From Naegleria gruberi (Eukaryota), in the NCBI GenBank assembly GCA_000004985.1, contig GG738862.1: a stretch of DNA of 64,000 nt. One strand, 5' to 3'. Below, piece by piece: positions 33,379 through 56,035 of this stretch; within the stretch, counting starts at the first letter, position 1; each line of letters starts with the position of its first letter. Made by a program: the position numbers and the translations under genes. The notes under the pieces are model-generated. The model had not been told where the DNA came from, did no database searches, and saw nothing but the letters and a program-made list of their open reading frames with translations.

Positions 33379-34398
33379 TTATTTCCTTTTTTTGGAATTG
33401 ACAAGATCATTTCCAAACGAGTCAATCATATATTTTTGAATTTCTTCATCGCTTTGTAATTCTTTTGATAGAAATCGAAATACCAAACGTTCCTTCCTGA
33501 CAGCTGTCAGAGCTATTTCTCTATCATTATTAAGGTGGATATCTAGCTGTTGGGTTGAATATTCATTAGGAAAAACTGCTTTCAACACTATTTCCTTATC
33601 CGCTTTAAGATTGTCACTCAAATGTCTTAGAAATTCCAAATTTAAATCATCATTAGATTTAGCAATAATTTTTAAAACGAAATCCTTATCTGATCTTAAT
33701 TCACTTGGAAAGAATTCAAAAGCTTTTGAATCTGCTTCAAATAAATCACTCACAAAATCCTTGTCACTGGTCAAATCAGAAGAAATATATTCAAGAACTA
33801 GTCCAATATCACCAAAACTTCTAGCAAGTAATAATACAAATTCTCTATCTGCTCTCAATTCACTGGAAGCATATTTAAACTGTAAATAATCTTTTTCAAA
33901 AGCTGCCATCACAACTTCCTTGTCATTTCTTAATCTGTTCGAGACAGCTCGCAACGGTTGACGTTTTTCTTTGAAATGAATTGAGAAAATTGCGAGAACA
34001 GCTGGTTTATGATCCCATAAATCGAATATAGAAACCATTTTTAGAATTGGGTTTTCAGTTGCATTGTGTTTGAAATTGGAATTGATCAAGTTGACTAAAA
34101 GTTTTGTAATTTGATTTCTGTTCCTTACAAGATCAAATCCTATAATGTTTAGGTGGTTTTTACCTCCCAAGAGGGAGAAACCTTGCATGGTATGTACAAT
34201 TAAAGTCACTTCATATTTCTTTGGCTTGCCAGATAATTTACGAAACAACATTTCGGATTTAATATTCGAATCCAGGATTAAAATGACAAGAAACCCACCA
34301 GTTAAATTATCAATATTCGACAGCATGGGTTGGTTGTCCTGATGTTGAATTATTTTTTTAAACTGGAAATTGAACAAAACATTGTTAAATAAATTCAT
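33379..34398 (-). CDS. DUF4116-repeat protein
   Basis: ATG at 34398-34396, 339 aa. Contains at least 5 tandem ~35-aa units of the form D(K/R)E(F/I)VLxxxxxxxxxLxxxSxELRxD (for example DKEVVMAAFEKDYLQFKYASSELRADREFVLLLAR; DKDFVLKIIAKSNDDLNLEFLRHLSDNLKADKEIVLKAV). Confidence 0.55.
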   Translation of the reverse strand: MNLFNNVLFNFQFKKIIQHQDNQPMLSNIDNLTGGFLVILILDSNIKSEMLFRKLSGKPKKYEVTLIVHTMQGFSLLGGKNHLNIIGFDLVRNRNQITKLLVNLINSNFKHNATENPILKMVSIFDLWDHKPAVLAIFSIHFKEKRQPLRAVSNRLRNDKEVVMAAFEKDYLQFKYASSELRADREFVLLLARSFGDIGLVLEYISSDLTSDKDFVSDLFEADSKAFEFFPSELRSDKDFVLKIIAKSNDDLNLEFLRHLSDNLKADKEIVLKAVFPNEYSTQQLDIHLNNDREIALTAVRKERLVFRFLSKELQSDEEIQKYMIDSFGNDLVNSKKRK

Positions 34399-37539: not shown

Positions 37540-38622
37540 TTATTTGGTTTCTGTTAAATTCCTGTAAGCCCATCTCACAATGGCATTTACAACATTACTA
37601 TCGATTCCTTGTATTTGTTTACATGCATGTTCAATTTTTTCTTCTTTTTCTCCTTTAAAGGATATTAAGGCATCCACAACATTTTCCAAATCATATCCAC
37701 AAACCATTTTTGACTGAAGGTCTTCCTCATTGATCCCAACTCCTACATCATAGTCTATCAAAACCATTCTCATTTGTTCCCTTCTCCACGATTTTGGTTT
37801 GCTTTTATCAAGTTTGAATTCAGAAATTTCTAAAAAACTTGTTGCCCTTTGCAAAGTCCCCTCAACTTTGGTTTGCTCTTCTAGTTGTAATTTCATTAAT
37901 TGTAATTTTGACTCAAGACTTGCAACCCTTATTGATGTGTTGTTTTGGGCACGCTCTTTTCGTTTTCGTTTCGTTTTTGTATATTTAAATTCTTTGCTTG
38001 ATTCAGAAAGACCCTCTGAAGAGGAGGTTAGTGGTTCTGAAAGATAGTCTAGGAGTGCTTCAACATTTGAAGTATATCTTTTAATGGCTTCCCAAGATGA
38101 ATGCCTTGAAATATTGCCCTTACCACCCCAAATTCTTTTATAAAACGAAAGAGGTTTATCATTACAGGAATGGATCTGTTCAATACTTGGTATAGTAATT
38201 ACATCTTCTGTTAATGTGACAGAATTATCCTGTCTGCTTTCTTTGACAATGTTAAATCTGTGATGACCAAAGGTTGCAGGTTCTTTGACACAGAATTCAA
38301 TGGGGTAATCAGCTATCCAGCTATTATACAACAACATTAAAAAGGTTTTAATCTTTCTCCTGCTCCTCGAAAAGCATAATACTTTGATAAACGAAGAGGC
38401 ATCTTGTATTTGAGTTGATGGTGGTGAACAATAAATTCTCGACACCTCACCATAAACATCCGCATGCACAGCTAGTGCTCTAATATATCTCTTAACCTGT
38501 GTTTCCCGAGGAATATGTATAAAAAACGACAAGTGGGTTGGCAATTTATCTATTGCTTCTGTCAATGAAACAAGCGCTTCATTTCCGTTCTCCTCTGTAA
38601 TGGTAACATATTGTTCACTCAT
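37540..38622 (-). CDS. hypothetical protein (~360 aa from first ATG)
   Basis: ORF 37540..38715 has a TTG track start. The first in-frame ATG is at 38622 (MSEQYVTITEENG...). Central KR-rich segment (KTKRKRKERAQ), then a helical C-terminus. No recognised domain. Confidence 0.45.
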   Translation of the reverse strand: MSEQYVTITEENGNEALVSLTEAIDKLPTHLSFFIHIPRETQVKRYIRALAVHADVYGEVSRIYCSPPSTQIQDASSFIKVLCFSRSRRKIKTFLMLLYNSWIADYPIEFCVKEPATFGHHRFNIVKESRQDNSVTLTEDVITIPSIEQIHSCNDKPLSFYKRIWGGKGNISRHSSWEAIKRYTSNVEALLDYLSEPLTSSSEGLSESSKEFKYTKTKRKRKERAQNNTSIRVASLESKLQLMKLQLEEQTKVEGTLQRATSFLEISEFKLDKSKPKSWRREQMRMVLIDYDVGVGINEEDLQSKMVCGYDLENVVDALISFKGEKEEKIEHACKQIQGIDSNVVNAIVRWAYRNLTETK

Positions 38623-39244
38623 TTTCTGTAGTTTTGGATTAATTAGATAAAATGGCGGTAAACTTGTTTGGCATTTTTTTACAAATGAAAGTTTGTTAAG
38701 CTTAAGGTTTTGCAATTCGTAAAATAGAGTTTGGTTAAGGTCTGACTTTTGCTAAATTCACTGCATAATAGCCTATATTTTCAGTAAGGAAATTTACTTT
38801 ATTCTACTCTTCCAAATATTCTATCTTCCCAATCATTAAATAAATTCTCCTTCATCGTAATCACCTAGTCTAGGATGAACCACAAGTGAAAAATCACCAC
38901 AATGATTTCCGTCCACCTGAATTCTCTTTTGAAGTACTTTCCTCACATAAATTGGGGTGATAATTCAAATAATTGGAAACTTTTGATGATCCACCAATTA
39001 CGAAAACGAATGGTAGAGGAGCAATTAATATTTACAGATTGGAGCTCTTAATTCCCCCTTATCAAAAACATGGTGAATTATCCTTCTCTCTGAATGATAC
39101 CATTCAAGTTAATTCTTCATATAATTCAAATTGTTGCTATCATCATTATATTGGTCATAAGGTTCTGGTCTTTTTTTCATCAGCTGAGATTTTGATTAAG
39201 GGGAGATTCCTCAAATCAGCAAACAAATTAAACTCTCAAAAAAA

Positions 39245-40231
39245 ATGCGACCTCTCTTTTCCATTCGCTCTGACATTGTTCGGCACTTTTCTTCTGCTAT
39301 CCGACCTTTCTTTAATTCGGCAGAAAAACTGTTCAGAGAAATAATGAAACCACATTTAACCTTTGAAGAATGCGCAAGTCTGTATGCGAATACGAACACA
39401 AAATCAATGAGTCTTGCAACCCTTATGATTACTTTGTGCTCTAAGCATAAACGGTCCGAAGTGGAAAGAAGGAAATATATTGATGAATTGAAAAATATTA
39501 TTCATCATTTTGATGAAGGCTCTGCCACTATTAGAACCATTGATATTGCCATTTCTACATTAGTGCATGAAGAAGGCTATGATGAAGTTGTAACTCTTGT
39601 TAGAAAACTTGGAAATTCATCACTTGCTTCTCTGAAGAGTTTTAGATTGGATCAAATCTTAAAAGTTCTCTCAAGTTATCCGAATGATTTTGAATTGGAT
39701 ATTGCCAAACATATATTTTCTGTTTTACTTGAAAGAAAACAAGTCAGTTTATACGCCTACAATTACTATGCACAGTGTTTGTTTAAATATAATTTTGAAG
39801 AGGGGATGACATTATTACATGAAATGAATGCTCAAAAAATCAAAATTTTTGATAATCTGTTTATTTCCTCATTGACTTTCTCTTTAAAGAAAAACAAACA
39901 AAAAGAAAGTAGAATGATTTGCTCAATGATTGAACATTCCAAAACTACCAACAAAGTGCTATTAACCACAATGGTGAATTTTTATAACAAATGTGAAGAC
40001 TATGATAAGGCAATTGAAATTACTAGAAACGTTAGCAGTGATGGATTGGATACAACTTCATATAATTGTTTAATTCAATCCTATATTGGAAAAAGTGATT
40101 TAAATAGAGCAATAGAGATGCTTGCTGAAATGCAACAGCAAAATATTTCACCCGACTCGGCCACATTTACAATTATTTTAACTGCTTGTGCTGACAGTAA
40201 GAATTACGAACAAGGGTTGAAAGTACTTTAG
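39245..40231 (+). CDS. pentatricopeptide-repeat (PPR) protein, N-terminal segment (ends at an in-frame stop inside a tandem repeat unit)
   Basis: ATG at 39245. The N-terminus is R/S-rich (presequence-like), followed by PPR-like helical repeats (MVNFYNKCEDYDKAIEITRNV...SYNCLIQSYIGKSDLNRAIEMLAEMQQQNISPDSATFTIILTACAD). Confidence 0.55.
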   Translation: MRPLFSIRSDIVRHFSSAIRPFFNSAEKLFREIMKPHLTFEECASLYANTNTKSMSLATLMITLCSKHKRSEVERRKYIDELKNIIHHFDEGSATIRTIDIAISTLVHEEGYDEVVTLVRKLGNSSLASLKSFRLDQILKVLSSYPNDFELDIAKHIFSVLLERKQVSLYAYNYYAQCLFKYNFEEGMTLLHEMNAQKIKIFDNLFISSLTFSLKKNKQKESRMICSMIEHSKTTNKVLLTTMVNFYNKCEDYDKAIEITRNVSSDGLDTTSYNCLIQSYIGKSDLNRAIEMLAEMQQQNISPDSATFTIILTACADSKNYEQGLKVL

Positions 40232-41800
40232 TTAGAGAACAAAATCGAGCACATCATCTATGAGATTTGAATCAATGATTAATTTCTATAACAAATGTGA
40301 AAAATATGATAAGGCCATTGAATTATTTGATAGCGTTCCAAAAGATAGAGTAGATACGACATCATATAATTGTGTAATTCAATCCTATATTGGAAAAGGT
40401 GATTTAAATGGAGCAATAGAAATACTTGCTGAAATGCAACATCTAAATATTTTACCTAACTCTACAACATTGCTATTATTTTAACTGCTTGTGCTGACAG
40501 CAAGAATTATGAGCAAGGATTGAGGGTGTTGAATATAGTTGGAGAGAACAAACTTTCAAGTAATCATTAGATAACCTCAATGATTAATTTCTATAACAAA
40601 TGTGAAAAATATGATAAGGCCATTGAATTATTTGATAGCGTTCCAAAAGATAGAGTAGATACGACATTATCACAATTGTGTAATTCAATCCTATATTGGA
40701 AAAGGTGATTTAAATGGAGCAATAGAAATACTTGATGAAATGCAACATCTAAATATTTTACCTAACTCTACAACGATGGCTATTATTTTAACTGCTTGTG
40801 CTGACAGCAAGAATTATGAGCAAGGATTGAGGGCGTTGAATATAGTTGGAGAAAGCAAACTTTCTAGTACTCATTGATGACCTCAATGATTAATTTCTAT
40901 AACAAATGTGAAAAATTTGATAAGGCCATTGAATTATTTGATAGCGTTCCAAAAGATAGAGTAGATACGACATCATATAATTGTGTAATTCAATCCTATA
41001 TTGGAAAAGGTGATTTAAATAGAGCAATAGAAATACTTGATGAAATGCAACATCTAAATATTTTACCTAACTCTACAACGATGACCATTATTTTAACAGC
41101 TTGTGCTGACAGCAAGAATTATGAGCAAGGATTGAGGGTGTTGAATATAGTTGGAGAAAGCAAACTTTCTAGTACTCAGTTGATGACCTCAATGATTAAT
41201 TTCTATAACAAATGTGAAAAATTTGATAAGGCCATTGAATTATTTGATAGCGTTCCAAAAGATAGATTAGATACAAGTTTTCACAACTGTTTAATTCAAT
41301 CCTATATTGGAAAAGGTGATTTGGATAGAGCATTTAGTATTTTTAATCACATGAAGGAATACTGTTCTATTCAACCTATTATCCCTGATACAACTACGTA
41401 TTTGGTGTTATTGACAGGTTGTGCAGACAGAGAATCTCTGAGCAAGGATTGAGGGTGTTGAATATAGTTGGAGAAAGCAAACTTTCTAGTACTCAGTTGA
41501 TGACCTCAATGATTAATTTCTATAACAAATGTGAAAAATTTGATAAGGCCATTGAATTATTTGATAGCGTTCCAAAAGATAGATTAGATACAAGTTTTCA
41601 CAACTGTTTAATTCAATCCTATATTGGAAAAGGTGATTTGGATAGAGCATTTAGTATTTTTAATCACATGAAGGAATACTGTTCTATTCAACCTATTATC
41701 CCTGATACAACTACGTATTTGGTGTTATTGATAGGTTGTGCAGATTTAGTATCTCCAACCAAAGGAAAAACATTAATTAAAGAGATACAAGAAAAACAAC
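39960..41800 (+). repeat. intragenic tandem array, six ~304-316-bp units (about 3 PPR motifs each)
   Basis: Units start near 39970, 40274, 40578, 40876, 41182 and 41498 (...CAATGATTAATTTCTATAACAAATGTGAAAAAT...). Units 2 and 3 carry stops and 1-bp indels relative to units 4-6; units 5 and 6 are near-identical. Confidence 0.8.
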
Positions 41801-42828
41801 TAGATAGTTCTGAGATGATCAAATCTGCAATGTTGACATTCTATTCCAAAACTTGCAACCAGAAAAAGACAACCGAAATATTAACAGATATACTAAGCAG
41901 CAACCCCTCCATTATGTCATATAATTGTATTTTAGCAAGTTATGCTCGTCATGGACAGGGTAAAAAAGCTTTGAATTTATTCAAGTCTATGGTTAAAAAC
42001 AGTGTACAACCTAATGGAGATACTATCACAATTATTTTGAATGCCTTGTCACATAGTGGAATGGTTGAAGAGGCCATAAAGATTTACAGCACAATAGAGA
42101 CACTCAAAATAATCCCATCACCATCCCATAAAACAGTAATGGTTGATGTTTTTGCGAGGGCTGGATTATTTAATGAAGCTGAACAGCTCATTGGAGACAG
42201 TACTGAGGCAATACTATGGCGAACACTCATGGCAGGATGTAGAAAGCATAATAATATAGAGATAGCAGAAAAAATATTCGAAATTTTAACAAAAATAGAA
42301 CCAACCGATCCATCTCCTTACATACTGCTATCAAATATTTACATGTTTAAAGGAAATAATACTAAGGCAAGTGAAATAAGAGGTTTGATGGTACAACAAG
42401 GCATTAAAAAAATTCCTGGAATTGTTTATAGTGAAGATAAAGGTACAACCTATCAATTCATTTCTGGTTCCAGTAATTACCCATTGTTTACAGAAGTGGA
42501 GAATAAGCGAAAAGAGATTTATCAAAAAATTATTGGTGCTGGTTATGTATCAGATACTAGATGGGTTACAAACGCTCAACTAATATCTGAGGAGGAAAAG
42601 ATTGATTCTTTATGCAGACACGCAGAAAAAATAGCAATCTCCCATGCTTTTGTTTTGCAACCAAATAGAAAAAAGATACTTTTAACAAGTAATTTGAGAG
42701 TTTGTAATGACTGTCACAATGCCATAGCTTACATTTCAAAAGAAATGAATGTGGAAATAGTTGTAAGAGATGCAAACAGATATCATCACTTCAAAAATGG
42801 TAAATGTAGCTGCAATGATTATTGGTAA
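41419..42828 (+). CDS. PPR-E-DYW protein, C-terminal segment (DYW cytidine-deaminase-like domain)
   Basis: The C-terminus HAEKIAISHAFVLQPNRKKILLTSNLRVCNDCHNAIAYISKEMNVEIVVRDANRYHHFKNGKCSCNDYW matches the plant DYW domain (HSEKLA..NLRVCGDCH...EI.VRD..RFHHF.DG.CSCGDYW). The preceding E/E+ region reads IPGIVYSEDKGTTYQFISGSSNYP...GYVSDT. Upstream PPR/TPR-like repeats continue back into the tandem array. Confidence 0.7.
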   Translation: MCRQRISEQGLRVLNIVGESKLSSTQLMTSMINFYNKCEKFDKAIELFDSVPKDRLDTSFHNCLIQSYIGKGDLDRAFSIFNHMKEYCSIQPIIPDTTTYLVLLIGCADLVSPTKGKTLIKEIQEKQLDSSEMIKSAMLTFYSKTCNQKKTTEILTDILSSNPSIMSYNCILASYARHGQGKKALNLFKSMVKNSVQPNGDTITIILNALSHSGMVEEAIKIYSTIETLKIIPSPSHKTVMVDVFARAGLFNEAEQLIGDSTEAILWRTLMAGCRKHNNIEIAEKIFEILTKIEPTDPSPYILLSNIYMFKGNNTKASEIRGLMVQQGIKKIPGIVYSEDKGTTYQFISGSSNYPLFTEVENKRKEIYQKIIGAGYVSDTRWVTNAQLISEEEKIDSLCRHAEKIAISHAFVLQPNRKKILLTSNLRVCNDCHNAIAYISKEMNVEIVVRDANRYHHFKNGKCSCNDYW

Positions 42829-43238: not shown

Positions 43239-44334
43239 TCATGTTAAATCTTCATCATCAATATTTGTTTTCATTGTTTGAGAAAACAATTCGTTATTAA
43301 TTTCAGAACGCAACTTTTTTTGATTAATCTCCCAGATGGAAACATTTTGAGGTGATTCAGTAGTTCTTAAATGTTCTAGGCATGCACTATAACATTTGCA
43401 TAGGCAGGTTGAGTGGAAAATGACTTGGTTGAGGGATATTCTGTCTTTCACTTCATTTAGTAGTTCTATTGCTGTGGAAAGAGTTTGTTTTACAATTTCC
43501 AAAGAATGTGAATTTGTTTCTGCAATGTGAATACAGCAATCAGTGAACTCTGCCAATGGAAATTGAATTGTAGCATCCCTTTCGTCAAATGCTGAAACGA
43601 ACGTAACATTTGCACTGTGCTTCCAGTAAACAAATCTAAACATTTTAAAAGCATGTTCCAGAATGGTTGTCATTTGGGATTCAGCACATATTGAGGGATC
43701 ATATGCCCTTGCTAACATAACTAATTTGTAGAGTAGAGCAGGAATATGCGCAGATTGGGGTTGAAGGTGGTTTAAAGAAATAAATATTGCAATGAAGAGC
43801 TGCCAGAAAAAACTCTTGGGTGAGTGAAGGGAAACCAGTGTTGGAAGATGTCATCTCTTCATATAAACGAGAAATAGTATAAAAAACTGAGGTACTGGGA
43901 TGATTCATCTTGAACTTGTTGAGATTTGAAACAAAATTAGTCCATTCCTTGAAAAACTCTGAAGACTTTTTACCACCAGTATCGTGAAAGAAAGCATTGG
44001 AAGTAATGGCCATTGTGACTTTATCAATAACATCCATAGACAAAGGATTTGGATACGTACAAAGAACAGAGCTCGTAGAAACAATGGCTGATTCGATATT
44101 GTCCAAATTGATGAGTGTTTCAATCTTGGATTTTTCTAATTCGCTTAATGGGAAAAAGATGTCTATTTCTCCCTTGATGTGATCCTTATTTTTGTTGGTA
44201 TTAGTTTTTAATAAATTAATAAATTGGCCACCATCAATAGGAGTTCTGCTTAATATTTGTCCGTCTACCCGGTCCTGTCTCAGCATCATGCTTTCATCAT
44301 CATGGACTAACCGTGGTGGTGCTCTTTCATACAT
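43239..44334 (-). CDS. hypothetical protein encoded by two overlapping same-strand ORFs (frame disruption near 43700-43720)
   Basis: ORFs 43699..44370 and 43239..43718 overlap in frames 0 and +1, and both frames are open across about 130 nt. The first ATG is at 44334 (MYERAPP...). No canonical GTAAGT intron is visible, so this is a frameshift, an unconventional intron or a sequence error. Confidence 0.4.
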
Positions 44335-44487
44335 TTTTTTCGATTTATTTAAATCAGCACCATGAAACAAGTTTCTTCTTTTTCAATGATTTTTAATTTG
44401 GTTGAAATAGTATGTAAATTAAGGACCCTCGGAAATAACAGTATTCATCATGAATTTATTTATTTCATTATCTTATCTCAATTTAGA

Positions 44488-47389: not shown

Positions 47390-49123
47390 ATGTCAGCATC
47401 CTTTAAATCTGACGTTCGTAAAATTGCTTTAACAATACCTCCCGAGTTGAACAATGATTCATTTCCTTCCATCCTACTTTTTTGTGTGTGTCAGCTCATG
47501 CTGAAATGTATTACAATAGAAGTACTCGAAAATATTTTGCTAAGTGCTTTTATTAATATTTATTTACCAATGATGACAAACAATAATGAACGCAACAAAC
47601 CTCTTGGCTGGGAAATTATTGATGATGATGATGTTACATCTCAACATAATTCGGAAGCAAGTATTGACATTGTTTCATTGTTAAGACAAGCAAGTGATGA
47701 AGTACAAAATATTGAACAAAGTGAGGATGTAGAGCATTCCCAACAAACAAGAAAACAATCAACAAGCAAGAAACCAAAAGCACCAAAACAGGTGCCAATT
47801 TTATACACTGATATTTTGGATAATTATACTGATTTTTCGTTTTTAAAATATAAATTAACTGGAGATGCAATTATTGAGGATGGAAGAGTTAATAGAACTA
47901 AGAGCAAATCTAAGCCAGTAGCAATTTGTAATATGGATCATTTCGGATTTTCAAAAAAAGATTTGTTTAGAAAATCTTGTAAACATTTCGTTGAATCTAA
48001 GCCCCATCTAAATTTAATATCAGCTAACAATAATTCTATTAAAAGCATCAAACTATTTAATATTAATGAAATGAAACAGAGTAAGGATATAAAATTTAAA
48101 GATAAAGAAGTTCTAGGAAGATTCTTATTTGGAATTGAATTGGCTGGATTAAATCATGGAATTAATGGATTTGAACATTTTATTCATTTGATTGCATATT
48201 TATTTAAGGATGAATTTATTCATGCCATTGGAACATATGATTACAAGGATAAAATTTTAAAAAAAGTAAAAGAATTACCAATTCAGGAACATTTAGAAAG
48301 TCTTAATGAATATATTGAGATGTATGAAAAAAAAACATTTCCAATAATATCTCCACTGAAATATATTGAAGAAGAGCAACATCAGGATTTGGATAGTGAA
48401 GAAGATCAAAATGAAGAACATGAACATTTTAATGAATTTAATACTGGAGTGGTTTCAACAACAAAGAAACATTCAAAGGAAAAACAACAACCACAAAAAG
48501 AAACAAATATTGAAAATGATGATAATGAATGGCATGATATAGATAGCTCAATGGATGACGATGTTGAAGAGGTAGTTAATATTGTTGAACAATCACGTGT
48601 AGATGTAGTCAATAATGAATCAAGTAAATTTACATTTACTAAAAAAATGGTTAGAGATATTTATGGAAAACAAGAATCCAGAATGTCATGTTTGAATTAT
48701 TCTAAATTTTCCAAAATAACTGAATCAGACAACACCAAAGACTCAGTTTTAAGAAAAGCAACAGCTATTTTGAATATACAAACTCTTTTAAAATTTGGAG
48801 TTCAGGTTGATGAAGAAAATTCAATAGTTGTCGCGAGCATGCTCAAGGTGTTGGAAGAATCAATAAGGTACCACATTAATTGGATTAAGGAAGCCGAAAA
48901 AGATGAAACTTTGAGCAAAAAATTGAAAAAAGAGGATTTGGAAATAGATTTAAAAGTATTTTATTTCAAATTAAATCTAGATGAAGCCTCAGGTACTGTT
49001 ACATTCGCTATTCAATTATTGAATGGAAAATCTCATGGAAATCCCGAATCGAGATTAAATGTGACAACACTAGCTGCCTGGCGTGGAGGCGAAGAGAAAA
49101 TGAGATCGAAAGTAGTAATGTAA
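47390..49123 (+). CDS. hypothetical 577-aa protein inside candidate element (possible transposase / accessory; acidic central region)
   Basis: ATG at 47390, 33 nt after the stop of the previous ORF. The stop at 49121-49123 lies 12 nt before the Tet ATG. No DDE triad recognisable by eye. Confidence 0.5.
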   Translation: MSASFKSDVRKIALTIPPELNNDSFPSILLFCVCQLMLKCITIEVLENILLSAFINIYLPMMTNNNERNKPLGWEIIDDDDVTSQHNSEASIDIVSLLRQASDEVQNIEQSEDVEHSQQTRKQSTSKKPKAPKQVPILYTDILDNYTDFSFLKYKLTGDAIIEDGRVNRTKSKSKPVAICNMDHFGFSKKDLFRKSCKHFVESKPHLNLISANNNSIKSIKLFNINEMKQSKDIKFKDKEVLGRFLFGIELAGLNHGINGFEHFIHLIAYLFKDEFIHAIGTYDYKDKILKKVKELPIQEHLESLNEYIEMYEKKTFPIISPLKYIEEEQHQDLDSEEDQNEEHEHFNEFNTGVVSTTKKHSKEKQQPQKETNIENDDNEWHDIDSSMDDDVEEVVNIVEQSRVDVVNNESSKFTFTKKMVRDIYGKQESRMSCLNYSKFSKITESDNTKDSVLRKATAILNIQTLLKFGVQVDEENSIVVASMLKVLEESIRYHINWIKEAEKDETLSKKLKKEDLEIDLKVFYFKLNLDEASGTVTFAIQLLNGKSHGNPESRLNVTTLAAWRGGEEKMRSKVVM

Positions 49124-49135
49124 TATTTTAAATTT

Positions 49136-50526
49136 ATGATTGAGGCTACTAGAGCTAACGGAGTAATTGTTGATGGGAAAACATACAAAGTTGACTATTT
49201 AATGACAACTGATTTATTATCCTTGAAAAATATTAGTAGATTAATGTTTAAAAGAATGTGCCCATATTGTTTGAGTCTTTCAACATTATGTGATAGAAGA
49301 CATGTATTGAGAGCAAAAGAAGAACTTTCATGTATTTTATCTATTCCTCCCTCAAAGATAGTAATTTGTTTCCTCCATTTAAGGGAACGAATCATGGAAA
49401 GACTGTTAATAGATTCAATATTGACAATGAGTAGTACGAGAAAATTTTTGAAGACGTTGAAATCAATTAAGAATTTTCAGAACTTTTCATTGCGTCAACT
49501 TAACACCAAAAAAGGAATATTATATAGATGTTACTTGATAGGAAATATGGTTAAATCATTGTTAAAAAGTCTTATTGTTATCAAGAAATTTATCAATCCA
49601 ATGCAATATGAATTGATGACCAAATTTAAACGAGTAGTGGATTTGTTGAACGTAAAGGAACGAATGGATGATGAACAGTATGAAACTTTTATGAAAGCTC
49701 TCAAAGATATGCAACAATCATATTGCAGATTATATGTTAATGGTCCTAAAAGTTGGTACATGCACATATTGTTTCATCATGTTCCAAGTTTATTGAAAAT
49801 GTACGGCTCCTTAAAGCCATTTGAAACTCAGGGTTTTGAAGGTAAGTAATCATTAACTTTAATATTAATTGTAAACAGGAGCTCACATTGACGATAAAGA
49901 TCTATTGGAAAAAACCTCTCATAATGGAGGAAGAAAATCATATTTGCACTTTATGTTTCCAAACTTTAAAGATATAATGTTAATCCAATTTATTTTACCT
50001 AGATTAAGGAAATTGTTAATTTGTAACGAGTATGGTTTTAAATTTGACTGTAGTAAAAGAGATTCTAAATTGGTAAGGCAATTTCTTGATGAGCCCTATC
50101 CTGATATACTTTGTGAATATTCTCATTTATTGGAAAGAAATGATGATCAAATGTGTGATGACGAATGTTGTCAAAATAATTGATTCACATAGAATTATTA
50201 AAGCTCATAGGGATAATCTTGATGTAGGAGTTAGTATATTGTTTTATTTCGGATCGTATCTTGAAAATGAAGGTTATTTGGAGTTAACTGATAAAAATTG
50301 CAAAATATATTGCAGACCTGGAGATGTAGTGATATTTAAAGGAAATATTTATAAACACAAAGTTAATAATATTTCAACAGGATTTAGGATAGGAATTGTT
50401 TATTTCACACATAAGGGAAACAAGTCAAAACCATACTATGAAACAACGCAACGAGCCTCTTTGAAGCAACACAGAGAGTTGTTTCCTAACGAGAAGCCAA
50501 AGAAAAAGAAGAAGACAAATAAATAA
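49136..50526 (+). CDS. Tet/JBP-family 2-oxoglutarate/Fe(II) dioxygenase (NgTet-like), 3 exons, ~432 aa
   Basis: Model: join(49136..49841, 49879..50022, 50078..50526).
- Intron 1 (49842-49878, 37 nt): GTAAGTaatc...gtaaacag, phase 1.
- Intron 2 ends at the AG at 50076-77. Its donor is GTAACG at 50023 (55 nt); the alternative is GTTTTA at 50035 (43 nt). Both are phase 1 and both keep the total divisible by 3.
- Catalytic motifs: H-R-D (SHRIIKAHRDNLDVGVSILFYFGSY), distal His (GDVVIFKGNIYKHKV) and 2OG-binding Arg (GFRIGIVYFTHKG).
- The C-terminal half is near-colinear with NgTet1 as I recall it (YLELTDKNCK; KPYYE.TQ..SLK.H.E). Confidence 0.65.
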
Positions 50527-50657: not shown

Positions 50658-50695
50658 TTGTGTTTTGAAAACTTGATCACAATTTGGATAAAAAA

Positions 50696-52606
50696 ATGTC
50701 ATTAGAGGATGATGGAGAGAAGCAGATTTATTCTGTGTTTAATTTACCGGAAGTGGTTTCTAATGTTTTATTAAATTTATCTGCAAGGGAAAGAGCAAAG
50801 TTTCGTCTCATCAATTCGAATTGTGATCAAGTATACAAAATTGAAGAGGAATTATTATTTATTAAATTATGGACAAGATATAGAGATGGACATTCGTTCG
50901 GATATCAAGAAGAAACACTTTCTAATGAAGAATTGGAGCATTATCAAGAAATTTATGGAAATTTACAATTTCATTTGCGTGTTTGGTTGACTAAATGTTC
51001 AAATGGAAGATATGAGAGGGAAAATTCATTGTTATTGAGTATTTGCAATATTGGCGATTGGAGATTTATTCAAGATTGTCCATTTGTGAATGAAGATTTT
51101 CTTGAAGAATATTTAGATTCGAATTTGGTAAAGAGTTTAGTTTGTGTTCACATGGCGAAAGAAGTTTCGTATTTTATGGACATGAGAAGTGGAATATTCT
51201 ACCAAAATGTTAATATTAAATCTACTTTGAATTGGAAAAGACTTGGAACTATTCAAGAATGGTTAGAAAATATGCCCTTCGATATATTAGGAAAATTATC
51301 AATGACTAATAAGGGAAGAAAAGTTAATTATCTTGCAAAACTTATGAAAGCAATGGAAGGAAATAATATTGAGGCGATTATTTCTTTATTGAAACAGAAT
51401 TTATGTTTATTTCCCTATTTAAAGGATCAATTTAAAAGAAGGGAAGAAATTTTACAATTTTTATTGGAAAATAACGTTTATGGAACATCAATTATTGGTA
51501 TACACAGTTATTTACCTGCATTTATACCGTATGATTTGAGATGTGATCCAGATTTTGTATTGAAATATTGTAAAATTATTGATTTTTATTATTATTTACC
51601 AACTAAATTAAGAAATGATACTGAATTGATCATTAAAATATTGGAAATTCACAAAGATGTCACTATTCATCTCAGTTCAGTACCAAAAGAATTATTTTCT
51701 GATATTAGGGTTTTGAAAATATTAAGAAAACCAATTATGGAAGAATTACAATACAAAGATTTCCCACATTTGGAAATTGACACTATTGAAAAATTAATGA
51801 TATTTGGAGATTGTAATATTCTATATCCATACATATCTGACAAGTTACTCAATGATCAAGATTTTATCAGGAAATTTTTAATTGCTCAATATGGAGAGGA
51901 GTATAATGTAAATCCTACAAATTTGGAATCTGTTAAACATCCATTACAAATGGTGTTTATTGACCAATCATTGAGAAGTAACAAATCAATCATGGAAAAC
52001 CTCTCACAATACCATCTTTTATATTTATGTGGCGACTTGAAAAGAGATTTTGACATTTTATCAAAAATTGAAAAAACAAGTATTCTAAAGAAGGTCAATC
52101 CACTTTTAACATTGGAAGATTATCTTGAAATATTTAGAAAATTCATACAAAGATCTCCAACGAAAACTTTTACATTTTACTATTATATTTCAAATTTACC
52201 AACAAAATTATTCAATTGTAAAGAGGTTGTTCTGACAACAGCAAAATTATACAAAAAGTATCTTGTGGTTTTAAGTAAGATTGGAAGTGAATTATGTAAG
52301 GATGTGCAGTTTTGGAGGGAATTGTTAGAGGAAACTTCGTATGTTGATATTGGAAGTTTCGTCCCACATGAAATTCGAAACGATCCAAAAGTTTTCCTCA
52401 AACAATTGAAATATCCTGAATTGCAAATGTGTTCAAAAGAGTTGTTGGAAAATGTTGAATTTGTGGAGGAGTTTTTGGTTGCCAATAATCATTTCGAATA
52501 CATTTACCTTTCACCTAAAATGAGATCAAATAAGGAATTATTCATGACATTAAGTGAGAAAGATATGGAACTATTTCAATTTGCATCCCCTGATTTATTT
52601 GCCTAA
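50696..52606 (+). CDS. DUF4116-repeat protein with F-box-like N-terminus (637 aa)
   Basis: ATG at 50696; the ORF-track start at 50684 is TTG. N-terminal LPEVVSNVLLNLSARERAKFRLINSNCDQV (F-box-like). Repeated D..FVLK...LP..LRND.E(L/I) units (DPDFVLKYCKII..LPTKLRNDTELIIKIL; LLNDQDFIRKFL; IRNDPKVFLKQL; MRSNKELFMTL). Confidence 0.55.
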   Translation: MSLEDDGEKQIYSVFNLPEVVSNVLLNLSARERAKFRLINSNCDQVYKIEEELLFIKLWTRYRDGHSFGYQEETLSNEELEHYQEIYGNLQFHLRVWLTKCSNGRYERENSLLLSICNIGDWRFIQDCPFVNEDFLEEYLDSNLVKSLVCVHMAKEVSYFMDMRSGIFYQNVNIKSTLNWKRLGTIQEWLENMPFDILGKLSMTNKGRKVNYLAKLMKAMEGNNIEAIISLLKQNLCLFPYLKDQFKRREEILQFLLENNVYGTSIIGIHSYLPAFIPYDLRCDPDFVLKYCKIIDFYYYLPTKLRNDTELIIKILEIHKDVTIHLSSVPKELFSDIRVLKILRKPIMEELQYKDFPHLEIDTIEKLMIFGDCNILYPYISDKLLNDQDFIRKFLIAQYGEEYNVNPTNLESVKHPLQMVFIDQSLRSNKSIMENLSQYHLLYLCGDLKRDFDILSKIEKTSILKKVNPLLTLEDYLEIFRKFIQRSPTKTFTFYYYISNLPTKLFNCKEVVLTTAKLYKKYLVVLSKIGSELCKDVQFWRELLEETSYVDIGSFVPHEIRNDPKVFLKQLKYPELQMCSKELLENVEFVEEFLVANNHFEYIYLSPKMRSNKELFMTLSEKDMELFQFASPDLFA

Positions 52607-54175: not shown

Positions 54176-56035
54176 ATGTATCAAAGGAAAGCATTGATAA
54201 CTAACCAATCAATCCTTAGTGTCAGTTTGCTGCTAGTTTGTTTACTGGCATTAAGTATTTTGCATGTTCCATCATCTGTTTTGTGTGCTTCCTCAAGTAG
54301 CTCATCAAGTAATGGAACTGTGAGAGAATGGCTCAATGACTTGAATGATCAAGCTGCTAATCTACAATCCTCTGCTTCAAGATTGCAAAAAGCTATTGCA
54401 ATTTTGAGTATGGCCAACAATACAGCATCCATCATCAGCATGAGAAATGCCCAGCTAAAGAAGATTAATTCTGCACTTGACATGATTAATCAAGAAATTT
54501 CAATCTTTAAAATCACCTGCAGTAATAATGATGGTCCTGATTGTAGCATTCCAGTATGTGTATCAAAGTGTTTGAACTGCTCTGGACCTGGAAAGTGTGG
54601 TGTTTGTTCTGGTAATTTTGATGGAAGTGATTGCTCTGCATGTAAATCTGGATGGAGTAATTACAATAGCAATTGTACTGTTCCAATTTGTGATTCTAAA
54701 TGTATTATTTGTCAATCACCTGGAAACTGTACCAATTGCTCTGGTAATTATGATGGTTCTGTATGTTCATCATGCAAATCAGGATGGAATGGTTCTAATT
54801 GTTCAACACCTATTTGTGATTCTAAATGTGTAACTTGTCTCTCACCAGGAAACTGTACTAATTGCTCTGGTAATTGGACTGGATCTGCCTGTTCTATTCC
54901 TGTATGTGATTCCAAATGTTTGAATTGTTCAGCACCTAGTGTTTGTTCTCAATGTTCTGGTAATTGGGTTGGTTTAACTTGTTCAGTATGTCAGACAGGA
55001 TGGACAGGAGCAACTTGTTCAACACCAGTATGTGATTCCAAATGTACAACCTGTGCATCTCCTGGTGTTTGCTCAGTTTGTTCTGGTAATTGGCAAGGAT
55101 CTACATGTTCCACATGTAAGACAGGATGGACAGGAGCAACTTGTTCAACACCAATTTGTGATTCCAAATGTACAACCTGTGCATCTCCTGGTCAGTGTTC
55201 TGTGTGTTCTGCTGGTTGGACAGGAGCAACTTGTTCAACACCAGTTTGTGATTCTAAATGTACAACATGTGCATCTCCTGGTCAGTGTTCTGTGTGTTCT
55301 TCTGGTTGGACAGGAGCAACTTGTTCAACACCAGTTTGTGATTCCAAATGTACAACATGTACATCTCCTGGTGTTTGCTCAGTTTGTTCTGGTAACTGGG
55401 ATGGTCCTTCATGTTCTGTGTGTAAAACTAGTTGGACAGGTTCATCTTGCAATCTCGCTCTTGGTGATTTTGCAAACTCACCATTATTCTCCGCTAGTTA
55501 TGGAGCTAGGTTGATCACATCTATTTTGAGTGGCGTTATGAAGAAAACACCAACCAGACTCTATAGAGCCATGGCAACTTATGGTATGGGAATTGGTTAT
55601 GGCTATCATCCTTACGCTTTCCATAATGCCTGCAATGGTTATTCTTCAACAGTTACAATTGTGAAAACATCAGCAGGGGCTGTATTTGGTGCCTATCTAA
55701 GCATTCCATGGGAAGATTATAATGCTGGGGATACAACAACTCGTAAGACATTTTCAGATCCTAATGCATTTCTATTTAGTATGGTAACATCGAGCGGTGT
55801 GGAGAGATTTGTGAAATTGGGTTATTCTGGAGCTGTTGGACAAACTGTTACATACAATTTTATAACACATCCATTGTTTGGAGCGTCGGATATTTATTTG
55901 GGACAAGGGATGAGCTATCAGCCAGCACCTGATGCTTATTCGAAACCAGCAACTTTTCAACCTTTGGAACCTAACTGGAGTTATGGAACTACATATTCAT
56001 TCACTGTTTCTGATTATGAAGTGTATAGTATTTAA
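54176..56035 (+). CDS. secreted Cys-rich EGF/furin-like repeat protein with C-terminal TLDc domain
   Basis: ATG at 54176. Signal peptide MYQRKALITNQSILSVSLLLVCLLALSILHV. About 12 tandem CxxxCDSKCxxCxSPGxCxxCSGNWxGSxCSxCKxGWTGxxCS units. C-terminal ...VTIVKTSAGAVFGAYLSIPWEDYNAG...NAFLFSMV...GASDIYLGQG...SFTVSDYEVYSI is a TLDc-like signature. Confidence 0.65.
   Translation: MYQRKALITNQSILSVSLLLVCLLALSILHVPSSVLCASSSSSSSNGTVREWLNDLNDQAANLQSSASRLQKAIAILSMANNTASIISMRNAQLKKINSALDMINQEISIFKITCSNNDGPDCSIPVCVSKCLNCSGPGKCGVCSGNFDGSDCSACKSGWSNYNSNCTVPICDSKCIICQSPGNCTNCSGNYDGSVCSSCKSGWNGSNCSTPICDSKCVTCLSPGNCTNCSGNWTGSACSIPVCDSKCLNCSAPSVCSQCSGNWVGLTCSVCQTGWTGATCSTPVCDSKCTTCASPGVCSVCSGNWQGSTCSTCKTGWTGATCSTPICDSKCTTCASPGQCSVCSAGWTGATCSTPVCDSKCTTCASPGQCSVCSSGWTGATCSTPVCDSKCTTCTSPGVCSVCSGNWDGPSCSVCKTSWTGSSCNLALGDFANSPLFSASYGARLITSILSGVMKKTPTRLYRAMATYGMGIGYGYHPYAFHNACNGYSSTVTIVKTSAGAVFGAYLSIPWEDYNAGDTTTRKTFSDPNAFLFSMVTSSGVERFVKLGYSGAVGQTVTYNFITHPLFGASDIYLGQGMSYQPAPDAYSKPATFQPLEPNWSYGTTYSFTVSDYEVYSI
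54530..55440 (+). repeat. intragenic tandem DNA repeats (alternating ~120-bp and ~78-bp units) encoding the EGF-like modules
   Basis: Near-identical DNA units, for example ACTTGTTCAACACCAGT(A/T)TGTGATTC(C/T)AAATGTACAAC(C/A)TGTGCATCTCCTGG(TGTTTGC/TCAGTGT). They produce antisense pseudo-ORFs (54597..54833, 55032..55514). Confidence 0.8.

Follow-up and report, generated by a model that had tools for sequence, protein, structure and literature searches.

In plants, the DYW-type PLS-class family of PPR proteins both specifies and catalyses the C-to-U editing of organellar transcripts. These two tasks can reside on separate polypeptides, as in the split editing factors of Arabidopsis, where the E+-class protein CRR4 and the PPR-less DYW1 act in trans. 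PPR genes are also known to change by duplication of PLS-triplet blocks and by unequal crossing-over, e.g. in restorer-of-fertility-like clusters. Both this family and its occurrence in Naegleria have been on record since 2010. For Naegleria gruberi, the literature cited in PMC4202320 (Knoop & Ruedinger 2010 among it) gives 10-11 genes for DYW-type PPR proteins and two C-to-U sites, and PMC4202320 remarks on the excess of DYW genes over editing sites; the DYW factors are presumed to serve these two known mitochondrial sites. Here, we analysed a window of 64,000 nucleotides, all of it nuclear DNA of N. gruberi strain NEG-M (33% GC, 0 N in the sequence), and describe a DYW-type PPR gene on its plus strand at 39245-42828.

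On balance, we think it probable that this locus is a single ancestral nuclear PLS-E-DYW gene whose repeat array was amplified by unequal crossing-over and which is now decaying and at least partly pseudogenised. The type of gene is no novelty; what is new is an array of PLS triplets that was recently amplified, has lost its frame, differs between two copies in one strain and has been mis-annotated as three genes. A first-pass annotation, made from the sequence alone, had read the locus as a heterolobosean PPR-E-DYW gene with a six-unit internal tandem array. Both readings were borne out, the first by matches to PF14432, PF20431 and the PPR families together with identity to N. gruberi proteins, the second by Tandem Repeats Finder and an alignment of the units. 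The locus carries three open reading frames (ORFs) whose products match, at 100% identity, predicted N. gruberi proteins from a scaffold of 502,116 bp; these ORFs and the domains at the 3′ end are the following.

39245..40231 (+): 5′ ORF, 328 aa, exact match to EFC45619 / XP_002678363 (NAEGRDRAFT_66501), stop TAG at 40229-40231
40874..41452 (+): middle ORF, 192 codons from TTG, units 4 and 5 of the array only
41419..42828 (+): 3′ ORF, 469 codons, with the tail of unit 5, unit 6, S-P-L2-S2, E1, E2 and DYW, stop TAA at 42826-42828
42247..42423 (+): E motif, Pfam E_motif PF20431 (E 2.6e-16), aa 277-335 of the 3′ ORF
42415..42825 (+): DYW cytidine-deaminase domain with PG box, HxE, CxxC and terminal CSCNDYW
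42415-42435 (+): PG box PGIVYSE, start of the DYW domain
42619-42636 (+): HAEKIA, with the HxE (HAE) at 42619-42627
42703-42717 (+): CNDCH, with the CxxC (CNDC) at 42703-42714
42784-42792 (+): HHF, in the DYW domain
42805-42825 (+): CSCNDYW, the C-terminal DYW motif

The public annotation splits one ancestral gene into the three "predicted proteins" 66501, 66502 and 66503. The model of the middle ORF (EFC45620 / XP_002678364, NAEGRDRAFT_66502) takes a downstream ATG as its start and has 188 aa; it holds neither the N-terminal nor the C-terminal domain and probably exists only as a by-product of annotating the broken array. The model of the 3′ ORF (EFC45621 / XP_002678365, NAEGRDRAFT_66503) has 386 aa from the internal ATG at 41668, while the frame is open from 41419 and offers an earlier ATG at 41500, both upstream of the annotated start. 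A literature accession search for the NAEGRDRAFT accessions and the array returned no match, with Knoop & Ruedinger 2010 and Ruedinger et al. 2011 lying outside its reach.

How complete is the deaminase end of the gene? In the 3′ ORF, the Pfam family DYW_deaminase PF14432 covers aa 375-469 (E 2.8e-34). The PPR and PPR_2 families match the same ORF at E ~1e-31 and the middle ORF at 6e-31, and PPR_2 matches aa 269-316 of the 5′ ORF (E 3.5e-14). According to PMC7611903, a DYW deaminase is recognised by an HxE(x)nCxxC zinc signature together with a DYW motif in which a second zinc site lies, and all of these features (HxE, CxxC, terminal DYW) are kept in the 3′ ORF. The alignment to the crystallised synthetic PPR-DYW protein 9kfx (E 1e-121) begins at a PLS triplet, takes in E1, E2 and the PG box and reaches the terminal DYW, and the DYW domain of OTP86 (7o4e) is matched at E 3.5e-27. 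The module is complete, S-P-L-S-P-L2-S2-E1-E2-DYW with about 7 PPR motifs, and at the level of sequence the 3′ fragment qualifies on every point as a member of the DYW-type PLS-class PPR editing factors. Like the land-plant PLS-E-DYW factors (7o4e, 9kfx), it runs PLS-E1/E2-DYW from end to end and has the PG box and the zinc signature; unlike them, it sits in a heterolobosean amoeba, and its surviving ORF of about 7 PPR motifs is cut off from the presumptive targeting sequence. A single continuous coding sequence that joins the targeting N-terminus, the PPR array and the DYW domain was not found at the locus. In metagenome scans, the E-DYW part found no close relative; over the full domain the relatives reach only <=37% identity, the exceptions being short C-terminal fragments of 23-96 residues with 56-70% identity.

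The closest paralogue, NAEGRDRAFT_72252 (P0002), aligns with 99% of the 3′ ORF at 46% identity. It has the same order of motifs as the locus, S-P-L ... L2-S2-E1-E2-DYW, and the same HxE/CNDCH/CSCN(D/N)YW motifs. Unlike the locus, with its 4 + 2 triplet copies, seven lesions and three annotated proteins, the paralogue has a single copy of each triplet type in one ORF. Since the paralogue holds one triplet of the type of units 1-4 and one of the type of unit 6, the ancestral state would have been about two triplets, and the four extra units would be specific to this locus.

We read the three ORFs as fragments of one gene, of which the 3′ fragment remains an intact short PLS-E-DYW module, for four reasons. 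The fragments follow one another colinearly on the same strand, and the neighbours on either side of them both lie on the minus strand (37540-38715 and 43239-43718). The frame-corrected units are consecutive S-P-L triplets that lead straight into the E-DYW part. A basic, disordered N-terminus is present only in the 5′ ORF, while the 3′ ORF starts acidic. Finally, the structural model of the 5′ ORF resembles PPR solenoids.

The last two points concern the start of the gene. The 5′ ORF is ordered as 30 N-terminal residues, an all-helical PPR-like solenoid without relatives, and then unit 1. Its first 30 residues are basic (5 K/R versus 2 D/E) and predicted to be disordered (predicted local distance difference test score, pLDDT, <50 for residues 1-30), which makes this segment a possible mitochondrial presequence; the assessment of targeting is a charge count, used as a heuristic, combined with the disorder prediction. 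From the two ATG starts of the 3′ ORF, the first 30 residues have 6 acidic versus 5 basic residues in one case and 3 acidic versus 1 basic in the other. The single-sequence AlphaFold model of the 5′ ORF is an all-helical alpha-solenoid whose mean pLDDT of 64 makes it only suggestive; in the PDB its best matches are to PPR proteins, with alignments of 281-329 columns. When the N-terminal 245 aa were run with HMMER against the full set of 1.84 billion representatives, the only matches were the protein itself and three spurious repetitive ones, aa 1-215 have no Pfam match at E<=10, and metagenome scans gave no match to the N-terminus. As this N-terminus is an orphan, the searches identified no orthologue whose full-length ORF is intact.

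The amplified part of the gene is a tandem array of six units on the plus strand at 39959-41814, with units of 304-318 bp or about 102 codons. Tandem Repeats Finder reports 39965-41649 (period 306, 5.5 copies, score 2180) and 41096-41744 (period 317, 2.0 copies, 97% matches), and a 42-nt unit probe has 5 matches versus 0 expected from shuffles, none of them elsewhere in the 64-kb window. With the register set at the codon TTG-ATG-ACC, the units and the most recent duplication among them are as follows.

39959-40262 (+): unit 1, 304 bp, S-P-L triplet, TAG at 40229-40231, 2-bp deficit near 40256
40263-40567 (+): unit 2, 305 bp, 1-bp deletion after 40468
40568-40873 (+): unit 3, 306 bp, first codon TAG, +1 at 40671, -1 at 40873
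40874-41179 (+): unit 4, 306 bp, intact S-P-L triplet
41180-41496 (+): unit 5, 317 bp, chimera whose body is of the unit-6 type and whose tail is of the unit-4 type, with a frame-shifting 1-bp loss
41497-41814 (+): unit 6, 318 bp (306 plus a 12-bp insertion), intact, reading on into the E-DYW part
41122..41744 (+): 317-bp tandem duplication of very recent origin, 41122-41427 versus 41439-41744

The unit length of 306 bp, i.e. 102 codons, corresponds to exactly one S-P-L motif triplet (S 31-33, P 35 and L about 36 aa), as judged from the frame-corrected translations and the alignment to 9kfx. In this respect the locus is like the known block duplications in PPR genes: its unit is exactly one P-L-S block of 102 codons, and its mosaic junctions indicate homologous misalignment. 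It differs from them in that the copies lie at 94-99.7% DNA identity inside one gene, in that the frame has been lost, and in that the two copies carried by the strain are not the same.

The identities between units are less even than the 85-99% first proposed for the whole array. Unit 1, the oldest S-P-L triplet of the array, is only 63-75% identical to the other units; units 2, 3 and 4 are 94-97% identical to one another, while unit 4 and unit 6 share 71%. The two halves of the 317-bp duplication match at 305 of 306 positions, the sole mismatch being C at 41415 versus T at 41732. Judged by these values, with units 2-4 at 94-97% and one mismatch in 306 in the duplicate, the amplification is recent. 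The 12-bp insertion in the P motif is carried by both unit 5 and unit 6, and the junction within unit 5, near 41428-41438, is a patchwork of unit 6 and unit 4 bases with one base lost. We also considered dating the lesions by the divergence between units and dropped this, because gene conversion or unequal exchange is evident from the mosaic units.

Measured against the intact unit 4 (or unit 6) as frame reference, the locus carries seven disabling lesions, two stops and five indel events, each specific to one unit:

40229-40231 (+): lesion 1, in-frame TAG in the tail of unit 1
near 40256 (+): lesion 2, 2-bp deficit in the tail of unit 1
after 40468 (+): lesion 3, -1 deletion in unit 2
40568-40570 (+): lesion 4, TTG->TAG in the first codon of unit 3
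40671 (+): lesion 5, +1 insertion in unit 3
40873 (+): lesion 6, -1 deletion in unit 3
near 41430 (+): lesion 7, -1 deletion inside unit 5

As a result of these seven lesions, the locus is split into the ORFs 39245-40231, 40874-41452 and 41419-42828. None of them falls in the long mononucleotide runs typical of sequencing indels, and six of the seven lie within 40229-40873. Multiple independent disabling mutations, a criterion for pseudogenes, are thereby found. All lesions named by the first-pass annotation are present, namely the TAG of unit 1, the deletion in unit 2, the two indels of unit 3 and the frame switch between units 5 and 6 (-1 near 41430); the TAG that it had assigned to unit 2 is the one at 40568-40570, which in the present register is the first codon of unit 3.

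How might this array have arisen? The original gene would have consisted of a presequence, a degenerate helical/PPR tract, about two S-P-L triplets, S-P-L2-S2, E1, E2 and DYW. The first triplet type may have been brought to four copies (units 1-4) by misaligned homologous exchange or by slippage during replication, in either case in register with the 306-bp triplet. A later exchange between a unit-4-type tail and the tail of unit 6 could then have duplicated the second triplet type and so produced unit 5 from unit 6, with one base lost at the heteroduplex junction. Point lesions would subsequently have built up in the tail of unit 1 and in units 2 and 3, or the amplification itself may have created them. 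As no ORF in this haplotype links the N-terminal targeting part to the deaminase, a full-length editing factor could not be made from it. The ratio of nonsynonymous to synonymous differences per site (pN/pS) among units 2-4 is 0.69-0.83, from 8-20 differences per pair, and would be compatible with relaxed constraint.

It had also been proposed that the change in repeat number would retarget the RNA-recognition code of the protein. This idea is weakened by our reading of the amplified units, which appear to carry nearly the same recognition residues (S with T5/D-last; P with N5/N-last or N5/D-last). Under the PPR code reportedly established by Barkan in 2012 and by Yagi and Takenaka in 2013, a protein with all amplified units would need a target with a 3-nt-periodic G-Y-N pattern and would not gain a new specific one. 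The near-identity of the specificity residues speaks against target recognition as the force behind the amplification.

Is the broken array also present in a second copy of the gene? NAEGRDRAFT_54547 (P0122, 455 aa), encoded on a 59,947-bp scaffold, falls in the 90%-identity cluster of the 5′ ORF, and the genes that flank the locus to its left and right (66497, 76176, 66500, 48386) have partners on that scaffold that are 93-100% identical; the scaffold proteins paired with genes of the window are EFC36147 and EFC36154-36157. The colinear second copy spans the window from ~32400 to at least 46483; the scaffold itself apparently ends within the 66497-like gene. Naegleria has been described as mainly heterozygous diploid (PMC9928731), and the second copy probably represents the other haplotype, which the assembly has retained as a scaffold of its own. 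Over the N-terminal 294 residues, the second-copy protein differs from the 5′ ORF at one position. Its unit 1 is in frame with unit 2, itself a mosaic of units 1 and 2, and unit 2 is in frame with unit 3, where the ORF ends in the shifted reading '...SQLFNSILYWKR*'; unit 3 of the window copy likewise reads '...SQLCNSILYWKR*'. The +1 frameshift of unit 3 is common to both copies ('...SQL.NSILYWKR*'), while the lesions in units 1 and 2 occur in the window copy only. Because the second copy shares the frameshift of unit 3 but reads in frame from unit 1 through unit 2 to unit 3, both copies are broken, and differently so: The state of the array differs between the two, and neither joins the N-terminus to the DYW domain. 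The accessions on the 59,947-bp scaffold run consecutively from EFC36154 (the downstream neighbour) to EFC36155 (the PPR ORF), so that there is no gene model for the E-DYW part on this scaffold, and we infer that this part of the second copy is broken, missing or in a gap.

Of the three explanations that the first-pass annotation had offered for the locus, a recently expanded and partly decayed PPR tract is the best fit. Several observations nevertheless weigh against pseudogenisation. The 3′ ORF is open over 469 codons, for which the chance at the stop-codon frequency of the window is ~1e-13, and every one of its catalytic motifs is intact; it follows that this ORF was under selection until recently and may still be. 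The lesions are unevenly spread, with 6 of 7 in 652 of 3584 bp (binomial P about 2e-4, for a segment chosen post hoc), and this clustering could mean either that both end ORFs are still maintained, as in a two-gene reading, or that tandem arrays mutate faster, with a decay too young to have reached the two ends. The pN/pS values of units 2-4 are based on the few differences per pair given above, and the comparison with the second copy was made at the protein level only. We estimate, from the ~2% amino-acid divergence of the neighbours between the two copies, that an unconstrained ORF of 1.4 kb would stay intact with a chance of roughly 20-40%; given this survival chance, the integrity of the 3′ ORF is not decisive.

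The alternative that survives best, although we hold it to be doubtful, is gene fission: The decayed units would be dead spacer, and the 3′ ORF would be expressed alone as a short PLS-E-DYW factor, from the ATG at 41500 or, before the 317-bp duplication, from unit 4; the 5′ ORF may then be expressed as a PPR-only protein. By its motifs, the 3′ ORF is a complete, catalytically intact module, its size of 442-469 aa is within the range of Naegleria-type DYW proteins (444 aa for P0003, 536 aa for P0002), and the lesions do cluster between the two end ORFs. The earlier suggestion of two genes with decayed units between them amounts to what the public annotation assumes, there with three genes, but a decayed tract fits the locus better. 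The sole intergenic or promoter space would be the decayed array itself, and neither ATG-initiated N-terminus of the 3′ ORF resembles a presequence. Moreover, with a single mismatch in 306, the 317-bp duplication by which unit 4 was separated from the DYW part is so young that the present start of the 3′ ORF is new, and the second copy lacks an annotated DYW model. The size argument is weakened in turn by the paralogue P0002, which begins inside a PPR motif, so that short annotated lengths may reflect truncated models. As a precedent, the Arabidopsis pair CRR4/DYW1 has specificity and deaminase on separate polypeptides, as fission would imply here; unlike in that pair, the 5′ fragment at this locus is without E motifs and the 3′ fragment keeps its own PPRs, and the separation is due to fresh frameshifts and stops rather than to separately evolved genes. 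DYW1 and DYW2 are mentioned in PMC7611903.

It is unlikely that the frameshifts or the 317-bp duplication are an artefact of assembly or sequencing, i.e. that the true array is uninterrupted or of another copy number and that haplotypes were mis-assembled or reads contained errors. Tandem repeats of 94-100% identity are indeed hard to assemble, the one-base difference within the 317-bp duplicate is within the allelic range, and the second divergent copy of the region in this strain could have been mixed in. Against this stand seven lesions in 1.3 kb, none of them in long mononucleotide runs, in sequence with 0 N, as well as the junction of unit 5, which is a mosaic and not a clean haplotype join. 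The collapse of a longer array, another of the explanations first offered, is disfavoured since a collapse lowers the copy number and does not make unit-specific indels and stops, and since the frameshift of unit 3 is found again in the independently assembled second copy.

We regard it as quite improbable that the gene is intact at the level of mRNA, with unannotated spliceosomal introns removing the damaged units or with frameshifting or read-through. Introns could do so in principle: 1120 single-intron GT-AG solutions restore one ORF, skipping exactly one 317-bp copy restores the frame, and the -1 deletion in unit 3 happens to set a TTTCTAG acceptor in frame with unit 4, so that one can draw, e.g., an intron with its donor GTACTT at 40222 and a TTTCTAG acceptor ending at 40867, together with a second one of 317 nt over the duplication. 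However, as many as 1120 solutions mean that pairs of this kind occur by chance. Upstream of the first stop there is a single consensus-like donor (40197 ACA|GTAAGA), no pyrimidine-rich acceptor is present between 40231 and 42400, and at least two long introns with weak sites would be required, where the annotators modelled none. The rescue by introns is thus unsupported, with no convincing donor/acceptor pair. A variant genetic code was rejected as well, because frameshifts are among the breaks and because the stops include TAG and TGA, while the gene ends in TAA. A scan for bacterial promoters and terminators and a composition profile were set aside as irrelevant or uninformative for a eukaryotic locus.

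Least probable of all is a fission in progress, in which the 5′ PPR-only and the 3′ PLS-E-DYW ORFs would both be expressed and act like split plant factors, and in which the haplotype-specific gain, loss and frame state of triplets would be a fast birth-and-death route by which a protist gains new editing specificities.

What does a decaying DYW gene add? Plant-type DYW factors in Naegleria are a published case of probable horizontal transfer, and to this the gene itself adds nothing new. The locus does show how a PLS array grows, with whole S-P-L triplets duplicated in register at 94-99.7% DNA identity. If some DYW genes of N. gruberi are wrecks, as this one appears to be, the surplus of DYW genes (10-11) over editing sites (2) would be partly explained. 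The annotation should be corrected, as NAEGRDRAFT_66501, 66502 and 66503 are fragments of one gene. These points are of use in curating PPR families and in counting editing factors; the picture of the editing system is unchanged.

Other parts of the window showed the following. A pair of adjacent or overlapping long ORFs on the minus strand at 43239-44370 (43239-43718 / 43699-44370) and another on the plus strand at 47390-49849 (47390-49123 / 49136-49849) have exact translations that are absent from the protein collection; both pairs are probably exons of genes that contain introns or are modelled differently. The ORFs at 33379-34398 (minus strand) and 50684-52606 (plus strand) each repeat many times a short motif with the pattern 'L(R/K)xD(K/R)(D/E)(F/I)VL...', which suggests that one repeat-domain protein family occurs twice in the window. 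A second tandem-repeat region is located at 54604-55372, with periods of 126 bp (76-80% matches) and 90 bp (96%, 2.7 copies); its consensus is rich in TGT/TGC codons, and it looks like a gene for a cysteine-rich (EGF/furin-like) repeat protein.

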